From Escherichia coli (GTDB taxonomy: Bacteria; Pseudomonadota; Gammaproteobacteria; Enterobacterales; Enterobacteriaceae): a stretch of DNA of 64,000 nucleotides. Location of the stretch: NCBI RefSeq assembly GCF_030384885.1, contig NZ_CP128615.1; one strand, given 5' to 3'. Shown here one piece after another: positions 2,677 to 64,000 of this stretch; within the stretch, counting starts at the first letter, position 1; every line of letters starts with the position of its first letter. The notes under the pieces are model-generated. The model did not search any database, had not been told where the DNA came from, and was given only the letters and a program-made list of their open reading frames with translations. Made by a program: the position numbers and the translations under genes.

Positions 2677-3089
2677 AGAAAACCTGGATGCTCGACACCA
2701 ACATCTGCTCGTTCATCATGCGCGAGCAGCCGGCAGCGGTGCTGAAGCGCCTGGAGCAGGCGGTGCTGCGCGGTGATCGCATTGTGGTCTCGGCCGTGAC
2801 GTATGCCGAGATGCGCTTCGGCGCCACCGGCCCGAAGGCCTCGCCGCGCCATATTCAGCTGGTCGACGCGTTCTGCGCGCGCCTCGATGCCGTCCTGCCC
2901 TGGGACCGCGCCGCGGTGGACGCCACGACGGACATCCGGGTGGCGCTGCGCCTAGCCGGGACGCCGATCGGCCCGAATGACACGGCCATTGCCGGGCACG
3001 CCATCGCGGCGGGCGCCATCCTGGTGACGAACAATGTGAGAGAGTTTGCGCGGGTCCCGGGCCTGGTGCTGGAAGACTGGGTGAAATAA
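2673..3089 (+). CDS. vagD: VapC/VagD PIN-domain toxin
   Basis: 138 aa, MLDTNICSF... N-terminal PIN acidic motif, ...VTNNVREF; coupled to vagC. Confidence 0.9.
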   Translation: MKKTWMLDTNICSFIMREQPAAVLKRLEQAVLRGDRIVVSAVTYAEMRFGATGPKASPRHIQLVDAFCARLDAVLPWDRAAVDATTDIRVALRLAGTPIGPNDTAIAGHAIAAGAILVTNNVREFARVPGLVLEDWVK

Positions 3090-3130
3090 TCCCGTAATAA
3101 TTTCCGTGACGGAGACGACAGACATGAATG

Positions 3131-3192
3131 GGCTTTGTTGAATAAATCGAACTTTTGCTGAGTTGAAGGATCAGATCACGCATCCTCCCGAC
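3131..3192 (+). mobile_element. IS903-like left-end fragment (62 bp)
   Basis: GGCTTTGTTGAATAAATCGAACTTTTGCTGAGTTGAAGGATCAGATCACGCATCCTCCCGAC is identical to the start of the full copy at 23487; cut at 3192. Confidence 0.85.
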
Positions 3193-24696: not shown

Positions 24697-24960
24697 ATGA
24701 AGAAGCGTTTTTCCGACGAACAGATCATCAGTATTCTCCGCGAAGCCGAAGCTGGGGTACCCGCCCGTGAACTCTGCCGCAAGCATGCCATTTCCGATGC
24801 CACGTTTTACACCTGGCGTAAGAAGTATGGCGGTATGGAGGTGCCTGAAGTTAAGCGCCTGAAGTCGCTTGAGGAAGAGAACGCCAGACTCAAGAAGCTG
24901 CTTGCCGAAGCCATGCTGGATAAAGAGGCGCTTCAGGTGGCTCTTGGGCGAAAGTACTGA
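24697..24960 (+). CDS. IS3-family OrfA
   Basis: MKKRFSDEQIISILREAEAGVPARELCRKHAISDATFYTWRKKYGG... Confidence 0.85.
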   Translation: MKKRFSDEQIISILREAEAGVPARELCRKHAISDATFYTWRKKYGGMEVPEVKRLKSLEEENARLKKLLAEAMLDKEALQVALGRKY

Positions 24961-24983
24961 CGACAGACCAGAAGCGGGAAGCC

Positions 24984-25207
24984 GTGATGCTGATGTGTGA
25001 TGCGACCGGTCTGTCGCAACGTCGTGCCTGCAGGCTTACAGGTTTGTCCCTGTCGACCTGCCGCTATGAGGCTCACCGTCCGGCTGCTGATGCGCATTTA
25101 TCAGGGCGCATCACTGAGCTGGCACTGGAGCGCAGGCGTTTTGGCTACCGTCGTATTTGGCAATTGCTGCGCCGTGAAGGGCTTCATGTTAATCATAAGC
25201 GCGTGTA
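24984..25207 (+). pseudogene. IS3-family OrfB, N-terminal fragment only
   Basis: ...ELALERRRFGYRRIWQLLRREGLHVNHKRV, then unrelated sequence. Confidence 0.75.
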
Positions 25208-47363: not shown

Positions 47364-49311
47364 CGGCAGGCGATCTGGATTATCGTCACGCTGTTAAATA
47401 TGTCGCGGTAGGGATACCCGTTACCGGATACCCCCCGCACAGATCCCGGCGTGCGCGATTTACGCACCGGGCTCCTGCCTCGGGTGTCTGGCGGTGAACC
47501 GCTCCACAGGCCATGGATGAAGAACCCGAACCCTTGGTAGCCATGCGGCTGCCAGTTTGTTTGCTTTCGTCCAGGTCGTATCATCCTTCTGGCTCCTGCG
47601 CCTGAGCGCCCGGCGCCAGAGGTTTGTTACGTGTGTCCTGAACTTCTGCATGGTGGGGAAGTTGCCCGGTACCGAGTGATAGTTCAGGTATCCCTGAACC
47701 ACTCTCCTGAGCCATTTTCCCTGTTCGGGGATTGAGTAATGCCAGCGCCTTCGCAGACCGTCTTTGATGGCTTTCAGAGTTGCCGTCATCCGATCCCGGC
47801 GGGTCTTTCGTATCAGCATGAACCTGCCGTTGCGATCTTTCCCGCTGATGTGCGTGAACCCGAGGAAGTTGAACGTTTCTGGTTTGCCTTTTCCCCTGAT
47901 GGCACGGTTTTCGGCAGCGAAGCGGCCGAACTCCATCAGACGGGTTTTCTCCGGGTGAACCGTGAGTCCGAACTCCCTCAGTCTGCGCTGCATGGCTATA
48001 CGGAAGCGCCGGGCATCGTATCGTTTGTCGAACCCGATGACGATGTCATCGGCGTATCTGACCATTACCACATTGCCTGTGGCATAGCGACGTCGCCACT
48101 GATGCGCCCACAGATCGAAGACGTAGTGGAGGTATATGTTTGCCAGCAGCGGTGAGATGACCGCACCCTGTGGGGTGCCTTCCTCCGTTGCTCGCCATTG
48201 ACCCTCCTCCAACGTCCCGGCTGTGAGCCACTTACGTATGAGCCTGATTACGCTCCGGTCGCCGATCCGATGCTCTGTGAACCTGATCAGCCATTCGTGG
48301 CTCACCCTGTCGAAGAACTGACTGATGTCGGCATCCAGTACCCAGTTTACGTTAGTGCGTACCAGCCCTGTGGCCAGTGCGTCCAGTGCATCGTGCTGGC
48401 TTCGCCCGGGTCTGAACCCGTATGAGAACCCCATAAAGTCGTTTTCATAGACTGCGTTCAGGATTTTCACCAGCGCATACTGGACGATCTTGTCCTCCAG
48501 CGAGGCGATGCCGAGCGGGCGTTGTTTTCCATCCGCTTTTGGGATGTAGTGACGCCTGCCGGGCTGCGCCCTGTAGCTGCCCTAATGTAGCCTCCGGTGC
48601 AGATCTGTTATGTTGTTCTTCATGTTTCCGGCGTAGTCCATCCACCTGATGCCATCCACTCCGGCGGCCGCTTTCCTGCTCAGGGAGAGGAATGCGGCTT
48701 CCAGTGCTTCGACTGTCAGCAGGTGGAACAATGCTGTAAACCGTTCTTTCTTCCGCTGCTTCGCAGCTTCCCGCACGCGTGACAGCCTCTGTGACATGCT
48801 TTCCCGGCTCTGTGTCCGGCGCATGTGTGGCTGTTCCGCGTTCCCCTTGGCCCCGCTCCTTCGCTCCACTGACTCCGCTCCTTTCGGGTTGTTCGCCTGC
48901 TTCGCCGCTACTATGAGCGAGTCCGACTTCTCCTCTCCGTACATCACCGGCTATGACTCCTCGTCTTCCCGGTGCGGGCCGTCTCCGACACTGGCAGATG
49001 GTCAGAGGGGAGATCTCCCGGTTCCCGCGTAGAGATCGTATTGACATGCCAGGGTCTCAGACCCCGCCGGGTCCATGTGGCACTCGCAGTATCGCACCCT
49101 ATGATGTTGCCTTCCGTTAACAGTACAACGTCGGCACCCGGTAATTTAATATACATTTCGTGGCTCAATGGCTGGCCTGTCAACACCCCTGTCAACGCTT
49201 CGCCCCATACCTCGCGGTATGCAACGCATGACTCGGGGACCTTGTGGATTGCTGGTCCTTCAATGGTCGGGGACTTTCACCCCTTGATCTCTACCGGTCT
49301 CCCGGTGAACA
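47364..49311 (-). mobile_element. bacterial group II intron (ends not resolved; 3' side abuts IS1)
   Basis: RT/maturase ORF in domain IV. Domain V-like 34-nt hairpin with GUAA tetraloop and 2-nt bulge at 47405-47438. About 360 nt of structured 5' RNA (GGTGAAAGTCC etc.). Confidence 0.7.
47460..48947 (-). pseudogene. group II intron reverse transcriptase/maturase with one in-frame TAG (codon 122 of 496)
   Basis: ORFs 48582..48947 and 47460..48470 are in the same frame (1488 nt), joined as ...DLHRRLH*GSYRAQPGRRHYIPKADGKQRPLG...; YADD motif; no endonuclease domain. Confidence 0.8.
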
Positions 49312-57689: not shown

Positions 57690-58040
57690 TCAGCGGCCGG
57701 CAGCCAGCTCTTCAGCCAGTTTCACAAACCTTTTGTGCTCAGTCTGCAGGTAATGGCTGTAAATCCGGGCATCACGTTCTGTCAGTCCGGATGGATTGCC
57801 GGTGAAGTAACGTTGCAGCACCGCAATACAGTGATTGTAGGTATCGAGATCATATTCCCAGTTTCCCAGCTCACCGGCCGCATCCAGTTCCTGGCGAAAC
57901 TGCTCGTATTTACGGAGCAGAATGCCAAGACCTAATTCTGTTGCAGCATAAAGATTATTTTCTCCTGGCGCGGAAATCGCATTACGGATTTTTTCAAAAG
58001 CATAACTGAAATCATTTCTCTCATTGAATGCAGTAAACAT
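57690..58040 (-). CDS. hypothetical protein (116 aa)
   Basis: GAGGAAAGGAC RBS region; candidate extended -10 TGGTAAAAT and two GTGA-N3-TCAC palindromes upstream (58110-58150). Confidence 0.55.
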   Translation of the reverse strand: MFTAFNERNDFSYAFEKIRNAISAPGENNLYAATELGLGILLRKYEQFRQELDAAGELGNWEYDLDTYNHCIAVLQRYFTGNPSGLTERDARIYSHYLQTEHKRFVKLAEELAAGR

Positions 58041-58610
58041 GTCCTTTCCTCAGTTGAATAGTTAGCCGTGCAATTTTACCACACCTCAATCATCGTCAGA
58101 TGAGTGCCACTCTGTCGCGACAGTGACTTTCACGAGAGTGATTTTCACATACTAAAATAATAAGCAGCCATATAACAACGTAATTAAATTACCTGACGGC
58201 CGCTCTGGCCGGATCCGACTTTTATGTTATTCCACAGTTTCCGGAAGTGTACCACGCACACGGAATAACCACAGCGCCCTTTCAGGGTGGTGAGCGGCCG
58301 GTCACGGGGCAGGGGAGGGGCACAACATATATGGTCACTGACAGCTGGAAACACCGCTACATCTTGTGTTTCCGGGCCGCTGCGCGCCGGCGGGGCTGAA
58401 TCAGATCCGGAACTGGTGGTTTTCGGATCTGCGGTGGAGAAATGAGAAAACAGGATATGCGCAGCATATCCACATGCCACGCATCTGCATAGGGCAGACA
58501 TACGCATATGTCAGTCATCTGCATATGTTACACCTATACAGACCAGTCCGGCAGGCATATACTGCACATATGTACTCACACATCATGCATGATCAGCCGG
58601 AGGAACATCC

Positions 58611-58841
58611 ATGCGCACAGTTTCGATATTTAAAAACGGCAATAACCGCGCCATCCGTCTGCCCCGGGACCTGGATTTTGACGGCGTCAGCGAGCTGGAG
58701 ATCGTCCGGGAAGGGGACAGCATCATTCTGCGTCCCGTCCGGCCGACCTGGGGCTCGTTCGCGCAGCTGGACAGGGCCGATCCGGACTTTATGGCGGAGC
58801 GTGAGGATGTGGTCAGCGATGAAGGACGCTTTGAGCCATGA
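58611..58841 (+). CDS. vagC: second copy of the VagC antitoxin
   Basis: Protein identical to 2446..2676; at least one synonymous DNA difference (GAT to GAC). Confidence 0.9.
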   Translation: MRTVSIFKNGNNRAIRLPRDLDFDGVSELEIVREGDSIILRPVRPTWGSFAQLDRADPDFMAEREDVVSDEGRFEP

Positions 58842-58933
58842 AGAAAACCTGGATGCTCGACACTAACATCTGCTCGTTCATCATGCGCGAGCAGCCGGCA
58901 GCGGTGCTGAAGCGCCTGGAGCAGGCGGTGCTG
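58838..58933 (+). pseudogene. vagD: vagD truncated after 32 codons by the IS21-family remnant
   Basis: MKKTWMLDTNICSFIMREQPAAVLKRLEQAVL, then unrelated sequence. Confidence 0.85.
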
Positions 58934-58991
58934 TCAACGCCACGATGTTTGACCGTTATTTGCCATTTTCATGCCCGCTAAGATACTTTCG

Positions 58992-59775
<784 letters not shown>

Positions 59776-59779
<4 letters not shown>

Positions 59780-60417
59780 AACAGCTCCTCATAGGCACTC
59801 AGTGGTCGATGTTCCACCTGACTGACCTGCTGCCAGAGCGGGGCGTGATGCTCCGGCACTGTCTGCCAGCCAGACGATGCCGGACAGAGGCGATGTGAGG
59901 CCACCAGTTTCTCATTACTGTAGATCCGCAACTCGTCATCCAGCGATATTCGTATCGATACTGGCTGACCACACAGCGCTTCGGGAACGCTGTAACGATT
60001 ACCACCAACCTCGATATAGCTGTCCCAGGACACATGGCGGATGTCGAAGTAACTGGTATCGAAGTCCGTATCCGGTAACGGCTGCAGATGTTCCTGCTCC
60101 AGCGCGAAGCGCTGTTCCGGCGTTTCTTTGAACTGGCGAAGCTCCCGTTTGTCAGCCACATCGGCTATCCATTGCTCCAGTTGTTGATTAACATGAGTGA
60201 AGCTGTCGAACCTGCGGTACCGGACGAAGAAGTTCTCCTTGAGGTATTTCACCATCCGCTCAACCTTACCTTTTGTTCTGGCCCTGCGTGGACGGCATGC
60301 CCGTGGCAGGAAGTTATAGTGGTCGGCCAGCAACAGGAATCCGGAGTTGAACACGACTTTCCCGTTGTTATTCTTCAGCACCGCAGCCTTCTGGTTATCA
60401 ACCAGCACCGTTTTCAC
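59776..60417 (-). pseudogene. istA: IstA transposase, C-terminal ~215 codons only
   Basis: ...[23 protein letters not shown]...RPRRARTKGKVERMVKYLKENFF... Confidence 0.8.
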
Positions 60418-60604
60418 ACAACCACCGAATTTGATCCCTGAAAACTGTCAGCGCTGCGAGGACGAAGAAAGTATTACGGCTAAAGCCGTAATACCTCCCC
60501 ATCCAGCTTCAAGCTATGTAGAAACTTATGTGGGTAGAGCAGTCCCGACAGGGCAGTACCGCATTGACAGGCCGTCAGGGCCACTTACGAGCTTGTATGA
60601 CAAG

Positions 60605-60642
60605 GGGGGCCGTCTGGATATAGCGAATTATTGTACGGTAAG
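60605..60642 (+). mobile_element. solo 38-bp Tn3-family inverted repeat
   Basis: GGGGGCCGTCTGGATATAGCGAATTATTGTACGGTAAG matches the inverted repeat at 34373 at 31 of 38 positions, same orientation; no tnpA adjacent. Confidence 0.7.
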
Positions 60643-60978
60643 CCTTTTTTGAACAGCCTTACCTATTGCTATAGAGGGGAACTCCTACGTTATACGCCGC
60701 TTTCAGGGGATTCGACCTTAATGAGACAACTCAAATATGATCGACAACTTAAACGCGATAGTTGCTGATAAAATCAATCCATTACGCGTTTCAATTGATT
60801 AAATAATGCACTTAATGTACAAAAATTCCCGATCTCAAAACTGAACCCTAAAGATACCAGGCATCTCCCCCAGGAAGCGCCCTCATGCGTTTTCCTGTTC
60901 CGCCCCTGCCACCTACCTTCTGTTTCATACTTGTTGTATTATTGTTTTTGTTTTCAATCCCCAAGGAGACGTCGCTAT

Positions 60979-61146
60979 ATGACTGTGCGGGAGACAGAGG
61001 AAAACATTGAACAAATCTTCCCTGAGCTTTCGAACTTAATTGATATTATTAATAAATGGCTTTCCCATGGAAACATTGATCCTGAACTGGCACACTTCAT
61101 CATTTATCTTCTTGATTACCTAACCACCACACACAAAAGCATATAA
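60979..61146 (+). CDS. 55-aa ORF (doubtful)
   Basis: AAGGAG 10 nt upstream; MTVRETEENIEQIFPELSNLIDIINKWLSHGNIDPELAHF...; lies where a primer-RNA-like transcript would run antisense. Confidence 0.25.
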   Translation: MTVRETEENIEQIFPELSNLIDIINKWLSHGNIDPELAHFIIYLLDYLTTTHKSI

Positions 61147-61190
61147 AAATTTTCCTTGCACATCCATTTTTTTGCGAATATTATTATTCC

Positions 61191-61289
61191 TGCTGAATAT
61201 GATTCAATATCGCACGCTACTCATCCATCCCAGGATAATGAGTACATAGGTTGAAGTTTCAACACCCCCATTACGGGGGTGTTTTTTTT
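61191..61289 (+). ncRNA. candidate ~100-nt sRNA (RNA I-like antisense RNA?)
   Basis: Promoter TTGCAC (61156-61161) -17- TATTAT (61179-61184). Four stem-loops. Intrinsic terminator ACACCCCC-ATTAC-GGGGGTGT + T7 (61262-61289). Confidence 0.5.
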
Positions 61290-61405
61290 ACCAATAAACA
61301 CAAATCACACCATCGCCATACTCTGTTTGCCAGACATCGATTGGTAAATATGCGTAACTCGCTATAATACAAAAAGAAAAATCAGAACCAGAAACCAGTT
61401 TCCAG

Positions 61406-61501
61406 ATAAAAAACACCCTCCCGAAGGAGGGGACAGACACATTCATATTTCCCAAAACAGGAATTTTTATTTTTATGACGCATTAATGAAGTTACTTCAT
61501 C
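61406..61501 (-). ncRNA. candidate ~96-nt sRNA, convergent with the previous one
   Basis: Minus-strand promoter TTGATC (61531-61536) -17- TAATCT (61508-61513). Terminator CCCTCC-TTCG-GGAGGG + T6 (61406-61431). Confidence 0.4.
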
Positions 61502-61703
61502 TCCAGTAGATTAACTTCATTTAAAGTGGCGATCAATCATATTTATTACGACTCTAAACTATTACAACAACCACAATAAGATATCACCTCAAATATAAAA
61601 GATAACTCTTACAAAAACGTTCCGAAAACAAAAAATACAGATAAACACCAATAAAAAACAGAAAACTCTTACACATTTAAAGATGGTAAAATAATATAGA
61701 ACT

Positions 61704-61803
61704 GTTAGTCTAATGGAGAAGGCGCATCTGATTCAGAGCAATCTATTGCGAAGAATCAGAGTAACAGGGCCCCATGATATAATCATGGGGCCCTGTTGCT
61801 TTT
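61704..61803 (+). ncRNA. candidate ~100-nt sRNA or leaderless small transcript
   Basis: Promoter TTACAC (61669-61674) -17- TAATAT (61692-61697). 15-bp perfect hairpin AACAGGGCCCCATGA-TATAA-TCATGGGGCCCTGTT (61763-61797) followed by GCTTTT. Confidence 0.4.
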
Positions 61804-62021
61804 ACAGATGTAAAAACGACCAATCATTTAACATCTGTTATCGGCACCGCCCCGGACGGGTTCGGCGCAAATATGGTATGGTACCAGCCCGGCAATTCAC
61901 CTGCCGTGCAATCTGACGAAGCAGTACCGGCGTATGCAGATATATCGTCCAGACATATCTGCCGCATTCAGGCGGTGAGTAAAGCCTTCTCTCTCAAAAG
62001 AGGAGCAACAGTTATCCACAG

Positions 62022-62030
62022 ATTCTGGGG
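62022..62030 (+). promoter_or_regulatory. consensus DnaA box TTATCCACA
   Basis: Perfect 9-mer followed by GGGGATAAC, as in the pMB1 DnaA-box region. Confidence 0.5.
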
Positions 62031-62184
62031 ATAACTGCGAAAAGAATATGTGCCAGGAAAGTCGGCTCCCGGGAAAAAGACCGCTGGCGGCGCAGCTGCT
62101 GGATACGAAAGCTGAGCTGAAAGGATCCCGGGAGGACGTCCGTAAACTTCAGTCCCTGGCCCGTCATGACGGGAAGGTGAAAAA

Positions 62185-62826
62185 GTGAATGCGGATACCT
62201 GGACCCGCCTGCAGGCCTTCCGACATGCTCTGGAGCTGACTTCCTGTGAGGCTTCTCTCACCGCCGGGTATGATCACCTGAAGGATTTCCCGGCCGGTTG
62301 CAGCGAGCTGGCCAGCCAGACGCTGACTGATTATCTGACGGAAGACGGCAGCAACCTGTACTCCTGTATTGTCGGTATGCAGTGGGATAATGGTCCTGGC
62401 AGATACGGCCACGTCATTGCCGCCCCTGCCAGGGACTATATCGACCTGACCCTTGATCAGTTTCCAGGCTATCATAACCGGATTGTGGCAGAGCCCGTTG
62501 AGTCCGGCGGACAGCTCGCGGCAGACCTCAACAGGGAGCCTGCCATCAGTACAGCTGATGGAATAGTGGCCAGCGCATCAGATAAGGTTAATTACATTAC
62601 TGAACAGAAAAATCGCCAGCCAATGGTGATCATTACAGAATGTTACAAGCTGATCAGAATAACGGCAAGATTTATACCAATGTGCCAGTCATCTCAACTC
62701 TTCCAGCACCAGGTATTCCCTCGCTTATTTATCATTTCAGACGTTGGCTCCTGCAGTTTGTCCAGGAACACCTTAGATCGTTTAGCTACTGACTGGAAGG
62801 TGACACTGTCCATCCTGTCGCTATAG
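62185..62826 (+). CDS. hypothetical protein (213 aa) with possible Cys-His-Asp papain/transglutaminase-like triad
   Basis: GTG start with AAGGTG RBS; FPAGCSELAS ... YGHVIAAP ... DYIDLTLDQF. The C-terminal ~45 codons look non-protein-like and overlap a convergent ORF. Confidence 0.45.
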   Translation: MNADTWTRLQAFRHALELTSCEASLTAGYDHLKDFPAGCSELASQTLTDYLTEDGSNLYSCIVGMQWDNGPGRYGHVIAAPARDYIDLTLDQFPGYHNRIVAEPVESGGQLAADLNREPAISTADGIVASASDKVNYITEQKNRQPMVIITECYKLIRITARFIPMCQSSQLFQHQVFPRLFIISDVGSCSLSRNTLDRLATDWKVTLSILSL

Positions 62827-63014
62827 GGCTTGATATAAACCTGGCAGGCAAGGGATCTGGTTAACTCCTTTCCTTCCATAAAGTGTTTGAAGATCCAGAG
62901 ATACGTATCCACAAGCTCCAGCCCTGTACTCTGTGTCCCCGACTGGAAGACCTGCGGTTCAGCTGGTATTTCCGTTACATCCATGACCGGTGTCTGCGCA
63001 GCAGTGCCTGTCAT
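62694..63014 (-). CDS. hypothetical ORF (106 aa)
   Basis: Open frame only; weak RBS; overlaps the previous ORF by 133 nt. Confidence 0.3.
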   Translation of the reverse strand: MTGTAAQTPVMDVTEIPAEPQVFQSGTQSTGLELVDTYLWIFKHFMEGKELTRSLACQVYIKPYSDRMDSVTFQSVAKRSKVFLDKLQEPTSEMINKRGNTWCWKS

Positions 63015-63489
63015 CAGGATCCTGTCACTCTTTCGACCGACAGCTTATGGCATACAGTTGGGCTCGTAAGATCCAGAGTCAATAACTGACAGGGTTTATT
63101 CTGTCATCCTCCGGCAACAAAGGCATATACGATATTCACTTATTTTGTCGGCCCAACGGCTTTTTACAGTAGCTCGTTTTGCCCAACTGATGCTACAGCT
63201 CTTTGGTTTGCTTCATCACGGATATCAGCTCCGACACAGGCACAGCTGACTGGTTGCAACGTCTGCACTTCTCTGGACCTGAAACGTCAATTATCAGGAT
63301 TCTGACGATTAGTCTTAAGACTGTCGGTAAATTAAGTGATGCCAGTTGTCAGGATATTCATGGAGCCAGTCTGCATGCGCCTCTGGCGTTGAGACAAACA
63401 TATGAAGTGTATTTCGGATATGACTGTACGCTCAGGAAGTACGGCAGATTCCGTCAAAAATTACCTGTAAAGACAGACTTCAGAAAAAA

Positions 63490-63543
63490 CAGTGCTCGCC
63501 GCAGACCGGTGACCGGGCGAAGCCCGCGAACCGGCGAGGAAGC
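63490..63543 (-). other. third ColE1 n'-pas-like element
   Basis: Reverse complement GCTTCCTCGCCGGTTCGCGGGCTTCGCCCGGTCACCGGTCTGCGGCGAGCACTG is about 75% identical to 55314-55366. Confidence 0.45.
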
Positions 63544-64000
63544 GCAATATATCTGTAGTTACAGTGAGCAGGTACGCCCTGAAGCCTTCATAATCGGTAG
63601 TGTATGCTGTTTTTCCGGAATGATTTATCCACATATCCAGAGGCCCGATCCAGTAAATAGATCCATGAATGATCAATAAAGGATCCATTAAAGATCCCCA
63701 TATCGCTACAAACCTTGTTACTCATGGGCCGGGACCACGATCACATAAGCTGTGGCATGTTACTGATAAACTGTAATATGCTAATGATAAGCTGTATTCA
63801 GTAATGCATATACTGAAGTAAGCTAATGACATAAACTATGGTCAGTACGCCAGACTCTGTTGTTAAATACAGACTGCAGGTTTTTCTTCAGTCAGTTAGC
63901 GGGGCTCTGACACACGATTTGCTGTTTATTCTTTTACTGTCCACAGGCAGGAGGCTTTCTGGAAAACGAAAATTCAGACATCAAAAAACTGTTCGGCGAG

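Follow-up and report, generated by a model that had tools for sequence, protein, structure and literature searches.

The AT-rich spacer between uptR and the RepFIB replicon of F-type plasmids raises the question of how many small RNA genes it lies among. Three short units, each with a pair of promoter-like hexamers followed about 100 nt later by a hairpin, occur close together in the window, by which we mean the whole 64-kb stretch of Escherichia coli DNA that was analysed. The original prediction had taken all three for antisense or trans-acting small RNAs, or for type I toxin-antitoxin-like modules. We found that the claim of a small RNA gene holds for unit 1, which is a known gene, uptR, and does not carry over to units 2 and 3, for which the promoters are at chance level, no RNA family was matched and the hairpins alone stand. 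The reading that we consider probable is that of one known small RNA gene beside an AT-rich spacer with two more terminator-type hairpins, which are not self-contained small RNA genes.

The locus and its carriers

All of the sequence elements claimed for the three units could be read in place from the DNA, as could the 17-nt spacers of all three hexamer pairs in their original registers, and they are collected with the neighbouring features in Table 1. The stretch is AT-rich, with a GC content of 0.30-0.39 compared to 0.5-0.6 in the flanks, and it is also poor in open reading frames (ORFs) as had been proposed, with none led by a ribosome-binding site inside the units. Iterons and repeats were sought in the AT-rich spacer, where we observed only short two-copy matches of doubtful meaning.

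Table 1 Features of the uptR locus, in window coordinates
Feature	Coordinates	Strand	Description	Basis
Flanking 55-aa ORF	60979..61146	+	AAGGAG ribosome-binding site	annotated as WP_000218294.1 on F
uptR promoter	61156..61184	+	TTGCAC (61156-61161), 17-nt spacer, TATTAT (61179-61184)	sequence and consensus scan
UptR small RNA	61192..61289	+	Rfam model 61192-61283, U-tail to 61289	RF02568, terminator scan and fold
Candidate promoter, additional to the original prediction	61341..61368	+	TTGGTA-16-TATAAT, 10/12	consensus scan
Unit 2 terminator	61408..61431	-	CCCTCC-TTCG-GGAGGG (61431..61416), then TGTTTTTT	terminator scan and fold
Unit 2 candidate transcript body	61503..61432	-		sequence
Unit 2 weak candidate promoter	61536..61508	-	TTGATC (61536..61531)-17-TAATCT (61513..61508)	sequence
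Unit 3 candidate promoter	61668..61697	+	original register TTACAC (61669-61674)-17-TAATAT (61692-61697)	sequence
Unit 3 candidate transcript	61703..61803	+	7-bp hairpin 61727-61760, palindrome 61760-61800, GCTTTT	fold
Downstream two-gene unit	62048..62826	+	46-aa ORF overlapping the start of a 213-aa ORF	ORF list

A search of 72,556 plasmid records placed positions 60800-62200 of the window in 365, 307 of them at an identity of at least 99%, and the carriers are almost all conjugative E. coli IncF plasmids. Among complete E. coli genomes the locus is present in 365 of 5426 assemblies, mainly on plasmids. On the classical F plasmid (NC_002483, 39086-40486) the corresponding DNA is 99.5% identical and sits between the pif genes and the repB gene of RepFIB. 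The order of the module is 55-aa ORF, uptR, spacer, two-gene operon and RepFIB; it is restricted to F-type, E. coli-type IncFIB plasmids and is at least 94% identical wherever it was found.

The 55-aa ORF belongs to the same lineage-restricted module as uptR. Its stop codon lies 10 nt before the uptR -35 hexamer, its homologs come from E. coli only, and even where its variants diverge most the contigs are at least 94% identical in their DNA. On the other side, the two-gene unit sits between unit 3 and repB, and relatives of its 213-aa protein, at 35-70% identity, are plasmid-encoded in many members of the Enterobacterales. Of the DNA upstream of the 213-aa gene, 11 loci from other genera share only the segment equivalent to 62084-62199 of the window, and this segment is the 46-aa ORF fused to the start of that gene. 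UptR is absent from these 11 loci, which also have no hairpin analogous to that of unit 3 upstream of the homologous operon, and a search through both flanking proteins returned no distant homologs of the module of uptR and units 2 and 3.

Unit 1 is the F-plasmid small RNA gene uptR

A full-length, above-threshold match to RF02568 identifies unit 1 (61192-61289, plus strand) as the already described F-plasmid small RNA gene uptR. In an Rfam scan of 58000-64000 the UptR model scored 123.3 bits, compared to a gathering score of 100 (E=2e-21), and the plus-strand alignment, at 61192-61283, covers the whole model (positions 1-92 of 92). A single base departs from the consensus, in the loop of the terminator, and none of the pairs is non-canonical. 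UptR is one of only three Rfam families that reach their gathering threshold within the window. Membership of the family is borne out by the score over the full model, by the three-hairpin fold and by the location on an F plasmid. We observed no material difference from the family, as unit 1 has its own promoter and intrinsic terminator and occupies the same site as on F. The UptR model was also called above threshold on F itself and on pECSF1, ZYB62 and C311.

The Rfam consensus structure contains three hairpins, rather than the four stem-loops that had been proposed, and the last of these is the intrinsic terminator AACACCCCC/GGGGGTGTT, with a GC-rich stem and a U tail. In the window it takes the form AACACCCCC-ATTAC-GGGGGTGTT, with Ts as far as 61289; it has a folding energy of -16.0 kcal/mol and passes the terminator scan, and the fold of the RNA has a z-score of -3.3. 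Upstream, the end of the -10 hexamer lies 7 nt from the first base of the UptR model, which is the distance expected for a start site, and an alternative register of the promoter, TGCACA-16-TATTAT, has 9/12 matches. The sigma-70 promoter at 61156-61184 would start an RNA of ~92-98 nt at 61192, and this RNA is predicted to form the three hairpins and to end at the intrinsic terminator with its long U tail. Taken together, these sequence elements show uptR to be a self-contained small RNA gene, in which a predicted promoter of its own precedes a structured RNA of 92 nt that ends in an intrinsic terminator.

The pattern of variation is consistent with this fold. Across ten plasmid copies all five of the variable sites in UptR, at model positions 40, 41, 53, 67 and 80, are unpaired (P=0.058), and the two differences that separate the window copy from the F copy, at 61231 and 61271, are unpaired as well. 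With respect to function, periplasmic DsbA'-PhoA proteins that cannot fold are toxic on export, and overproduction of UptR is reported to suppress this toxicity (Guigueno, Dassa, Belin and Boquet 2001, J Bacteriol 183:1147).

Units 2 and 3 have distinctive hairpins and chance-level promoters

The hairpins of units 1-3 exceed chance. In the unit 2 terminator a GC stem of 6 bp closes a TTCG loop and is followed by six Ts; its folding energy is -11.7 kcal/mol, and it passes the terminator scan. It resembles intrinsic terminators in its GC stem, UUCG loop and U6 tract, and it faces the uptR terminator as the members of convergent pairs do, the two 3' ends being ~117-119 bp apart, which agrees with the 117 bp first given. 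Unlike a typical intrinsic terminator, however, it has no evident gene upstream. On the plus strand the stem is not followed by a T-run, and the terminator would therefore work on the minus strand only. The fold z-score for unit 2 is only -2.3.

The palindrome of unit 3 is of a different kind. It was described as a hairpin of 15 bp and proved to be slightly longer, with 16 perfect base pairs around a 3-nt loop, or 19 bp with one mismatch (95% complementarity), and a folding energy of -37.7 kcal/mol; the z-score for the unit 3 fold is -7.7. No other perfect hairpin in the 64-kb window has arms of at least 12 bp, and among plasmids the palindrome was found at this locus only. In contrast to the usual intrinsic terminators its stem is unusually long, at 16-19 bp, the U tract has a length of only four and the DNA upstream holds no evident gene. 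The T-run of 4 is below the criterion of at least 5, and the hairpin fails the terminator scan.

The promoters were compared with simulated DNA of local composition, in which a promoter-like site had to be placed so as to give a transcript of 55-135 nt. The unit 2 promoter has 7/12 matches to the consensus and was missed by the consensus scan, and the chance of a site as good as this one 55-135 nt upstream of a fixed point is 59%. For unit 3 the TTACAC hexamer has 2/6 matches to TTGACA; the best register is CTTACA-16-AATAAT, with 9/12 matches, for which the equivalent chance is 17%. The promoters of units 2 and 3 are thus indistinguishable from chance in AT-rich DNA. Across 59500-64000 we counted 9 promoter-like sites, compared to 6.5 +/- 2.8 in shuffles, and 5 terminator-like sites, compared to 3.9 +/- 2.0. 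A weak consensus score can neither rule a promoter in nor rule it out, since the genuine uptR promoter scores no better, with just 8-9/12 matches.

The scan also revealed a further candidate promoter, TTGGTA-16-TATAAT, and no other site in the region matches the sigma-70 consensus as well. Neither hexamer varies among the copies compared, and within a target zone of 80 nt a match of 10/12 is expected by chance with a probability of ~0.03. This promoter would read antisense through unit 2 toward the unit 3 hairpin.

Variation and deletions among plasmid copies

We compared ten plasmid copies for substitutions and indels. In the 55-aa ORF 0.6% of sites vary, and the deletions seen in some copies, of 39 and 27 nt, are in-frame only; the values for UptR and for the spacers are 5.4% and 7-9% respectively. 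Among the non-coding segments of the ten copies unit 2 varies least. All 24 nt of its terminator are invariant in the copies compared, and the body and terminator together have 2 in 96, compared to 36 in 460 for the other non-coding sites, a difference that is weak and was tested post hoc (Fisher p=0.044). This is more conservation than a bare terminator would need and counts against a reading of unit 2 as a terminator and nothing else.

For unit 3 the picture is different. Its promoter region has 12% variable sites, and in the ZYB62 and C311 plasmids 5-6 substitutions fall in the -35 hexamer, the most variable spot of the region. A deletion of ~76 bp of the type seen in pECSF1 (61653/6 to 61728/30) removes the -35 and -10 hexamers, the start site and the first ~25 nt of the unit, leaving the hairpin. 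Among records sampled at even spacing, 35 of 60 from plasmids and 13 of 20 from E. coli are of this type, or ~60% of carriers. In ZYB62 and C311 a 235-bp deletion (61768-62002), bounded by 9-bp direct repeats AG(T/C)AACAG, takes the hairpin instead. Unit 3 is therefore intact from promoter to terminator only in an F-type minority and is not kept as a unit, since ~60% of carriers lack the promoter and another lineage lacks the hairpin. Unit 2 is intact in every full-length copy compared. As a check on the expectation that promoter and terminator would be retained together in homologous regions, the comparison has little power, as the copies are all at least 94% identical. We also considered unit 3 as a mobile or repeated element and rejected this, the palindrome being confined to a single locus and the 235-bp indel having no terminal inverted repeats.

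Searches for families, targets and transcripts

Several IncF plasmid RNAs, such as FinP, CopA and Sok, are short and highly structured, of ~80-100 nt, with strong terminal hairpins, and each is antisense to a defined target, namely traJ, the repA leader and hok/mok. As candidate RNAs, units 2 and 3 are like these in being short, structured, ~80-100 nt long and plasmid-encoded. In contrast to them, however, they overlap no annotated gene and are conserved within one narrow plasmid lineage only. Neither unit matches FinP, CopA, Sok or any other Rfam family, and lowering the threshold to E<=1 gave only spurious hairpin matches.

Target prediction, which had been suggested as a check, gave nothing above background. 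Duplex energies between the three RNAs and the 41/55-aa mRNA, the leader of the downstream operon and the repB leader had z-scores of -0.9 to +0.9, equal to those of shuffled controls, and no complementarity to the units above chance was found anywhere in the window.

A search of the literature on UptR, on the small RNAs of pUTI89 and on those of the F plasmid returned no published transcript data for the locus. The plasmid pAA, which was the subject of a dRNA-seq study (PMC5066232), does not carry the module, and its homology with the window begins only at 62910. A conjugation RNA-seq paper (NAR 2025) covers leading-region genes only.

A known gene and two hairpins

Under the reading that we prefer, the two hairpins would act as terminators within the spacer. 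The unit 2 hairpin would halt minus-strand transcription before it collides with that of uptR, and the unit 3 palindrome would halt plus-strand read-through from uptR, or transcripts from the 61341 promoter, before they enter the downstream operon and RepFIB. For unit 3 this terminator role is one that we infer, because the hairpin is followed by only four Ts and failed the terminator scan. The conserved two-gene operon (62048..62826) is 245 bp downstream of the palindrome and would be the likely beneficiary of any insulation by the hairpin.

A second explanation is that units 2 and 3 are independent small RNA genes of ~100 nt, forming with uptR a cluster of three trans-acting or antisense RNAs beside RepFIB. 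Each hairpin does have a hexamer pair with a 17-nt spacer ~100 nt upstream, the genuine promoter of uptR scores no higher against the consensus, unit 2 varies less than the surrounding spacer and remains intact in full-length copies, and an RNA from unit 3 would fold very stably. We nevertheless regard this explanation as unlikely, given that the promoters are at chance level (P ~0.59 and ~0.17, with that of unit 2 missed by the scan), that unit 3 has lost its promoter or its hairpin in most carriers or in another lineage, and that we observed neither a family match, nor homologs beyond a group of near-identical plasmids, nor complementarity above controls to the neighbouring mRNAs or the rest of the window. 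It is possible, though doubtful, that units 2 and 3 still give rise to short RNAs, and of the two unit 2 is the better candidate.

The 61341 promoter suggests a third explanation, in which a plus-strand non-coding transcript of ~430 nt runs from 61341-61368 to the unit 3 hairpin and the unit 2 RNA is its antisense partner. The quality of the promoter, with its invariant hexamers and low chance probability, argues for such a transcript, as does the structure of the unit 2 hairpin, which has no T-run on the plus strand and so would not stop it. A perfect TATAAT, however, is not rare at 30-39% GC, the transcript would carry no ORF or known RNA family, and in most carriers it is shortened by the 76-bp deletion with no obvious consequence. 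We consider this explanation decidedly improbable.

It is also conceivable that the unit 3 palindrome acts as DNA where the uptR module meets the RepFIB-linked operon, by binding a protein, by forming a cruciform or as a site prone to recombination. Its 16 perfect base pairs are far beyond what a terminator needs, only four Ts follow, and homology with ZYB62 and C311 breaks exactly at the foot of the hairpin. The break is, however, accounted for by deletion between the direct repeats, and the palindrome is found nowhere else, with no counterpart in the 11 loci from other genera. We know of no protein that binds it, and we give this explanation a very small chance of being correct.

The proposal of a type I toxin-antitoxin-like module, with an mRNA for a small toxic peptide and an antisense RNA, could draw on the convergence of units 1 and 2 and on two hydrophobic minus-strand ORFs, of 26 aa (61442..61362) and 30 aa (61676..61584), but it is extremely improbable, as a Shine-Dalgarno sequence is lacking from both ORFs, the shorter of them (26 aa) reads across the unit 2 terminator and has its three variable sites (61382, 61394 and 61396) at codon positions 1 or 2, units 1 and 2 do not overlap, with their 3' ends 117 bp apart, no family such as hok/sok, ldr, ibs or tisB was matched, and the duplex energies equal those of shuffled controls. 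The Phe/Leu-rich peptides of both ORFs follow from the T-rich composition of the strand alone, and we rejected the toxin reading of these small ORFs on composition, on the lack of a ribosome-binding site and on the pattern of substitutions.

Implications for F-type plasmids

The finding is for the most part an ordinary one, because unit 1 was already known and units 2 and 3 are hairpins with chance-level promoters in a spacer. It matters little beyond annotation and, if units 2 or 3 are expressed, they would be of modest specialist interest and would introduce no new kind of mechanism. That one or two further, undescribed small RNAs are encoded in the uptR-to-RepFIB spacer of F-type plasmids seems to us an outside chance. 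One candidate is unit 2 (61503 to 61408, minus strand), perhaps with a transcript from the 61341 promoter as its antisense partner, and another is the highly stable RNA of unit 3, which may be made by F-type but not by pECSF1-type plasmids. If this were true, uptR and the further RNAs would make up a lineage-specific cluster acting on host or plasmid targets, and expression of either unit would add plasmid-specific small RNAs to classical F beside RepFIB. In that event the natural deletion variants, of the pECSF1 and ZYB62 types, would serve as ready-made controls.

For annotation the consequence is more immediate. No feature is annotated at the locus in any of the E. coli records listed, so that uptR and units 2 and 3 are all unmarked, and the record of p14EC033d, which is identical to the window, has 1.75 kb here without any annotation. 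The uptR gene has been in the literature since 2001 and is in Rfam, yet it is unannotated by RefSeq in the 366 complete E. coli records that were matched, and flagging it would be a useful clean-up of the annotation of F-type plasmid records.

A candidate promoter between units 1 and 2

The strongest sigma-70-like match of the region lies on the plus strand between the uptR sRNA gene (unit 1) and the minus-strand unit 2, and matches the consensus at 10 of 12 hexamer positions. The original prediction had left this site out of its list of promoters. Both hexamers are invariant in every copy compared. A transcript started here would run antisense to unit 2 and head towards the unit 3 hairpin.

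Features in and around the uptR module and elsewhere in the window (window coordinates)
Feature	Position	Strand	Remarks
IS1222-type frameshift element	24927-25044		
Group II intron	49052-49277	-	
vapB and truncated vapC, then frameshifted IS21 istB and istA remnants	58611-60417		
41-aa hydrophobic ORF (MRFPVPPLPPTFCFILVVLLFLFSIPKE...)	60885-61010	+	AGGAAG 7 nt before ATG
55-aa ORF	60979-61146	+	stop 10 nt before uptR promoter
Candidate promoter	61341-61368	+	TTGGTA-16-TATAAT
235-bp segment	61768-62002		bordered by direct repeat AG(T/C)AACAG
14-nt inverted repeat CAGTTATCCACAGA / TCTGGGGATAACTG	62009-62037		11 nt upstream of 46-aa ORF start
46-aa ORF overlapping start of 213-aa ORF	62048-62826	+	
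Perfect DnaA box	63625-63633		immediately upstream of repB

The 235-bp segment and the downstream operon

Comparison with the corresponding loci of plasmids ZYB62 and C311 revealed that the 235-bp segment is present in F-type plasmids and missing from these two. A search for terminal inverted repeats at the segment found none, which argues against a mobile element, and with a direct repeat at its borders the difference looks like a repeat-mediated deletion. On ZYB62 we also observed an STnc490 Hfq-binding RNA (RF01405, 141 bits; positions 3061-3184 of locus L003, minus strand), approximately 1.1 kb downstream of that plasmid's truncated copy of the module.

The inverted repeat upstream of the conserved two-gene operon may be its operator. 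Within the repeat lies a perfect match to the DnaA-box consensus, TTATCCACA, and another perfect box precedes repB; with 3 such boxes observed in the window vs 1.5 expected, their number alone is not significant. The 213-aa protein had no match in a Pfam search, and its homologues, of around 268 aa, are common beside plasmid replicons across the Enterobacterales. Only about 76% of the length of the E. coli F-type protein aligns to many of these, which may point to a diverged or truncated C-terminal region.

The left side of the module

To the left of uptR, the 41-aa ORF runs into the 5' end of the 55-aa ORF. Neither returned a match in a Pfam search, and neither is annotated in the p14EC033d plasmid record, which is identical to the window. 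Variation in the 55-aa ORF is low; deletions of 39 and 27 nt occur in some copies and preserve the reading frame.

Homology with the F plasmid begins at 60428, and the vapB/vapC/IS21 stretch directly adjoins the module on its left, the IS21 remnant taking the place of DNA found on F. There, left of the module and absent from the window, the F plasmid (positions 4092-5271 of locus L001) encodes a TIR-domain protein (PF10137, CAP12-PCTIR_TIR) together with a YuaX-family protein, adjoining pifA. These two genes may form a defence gene pair.
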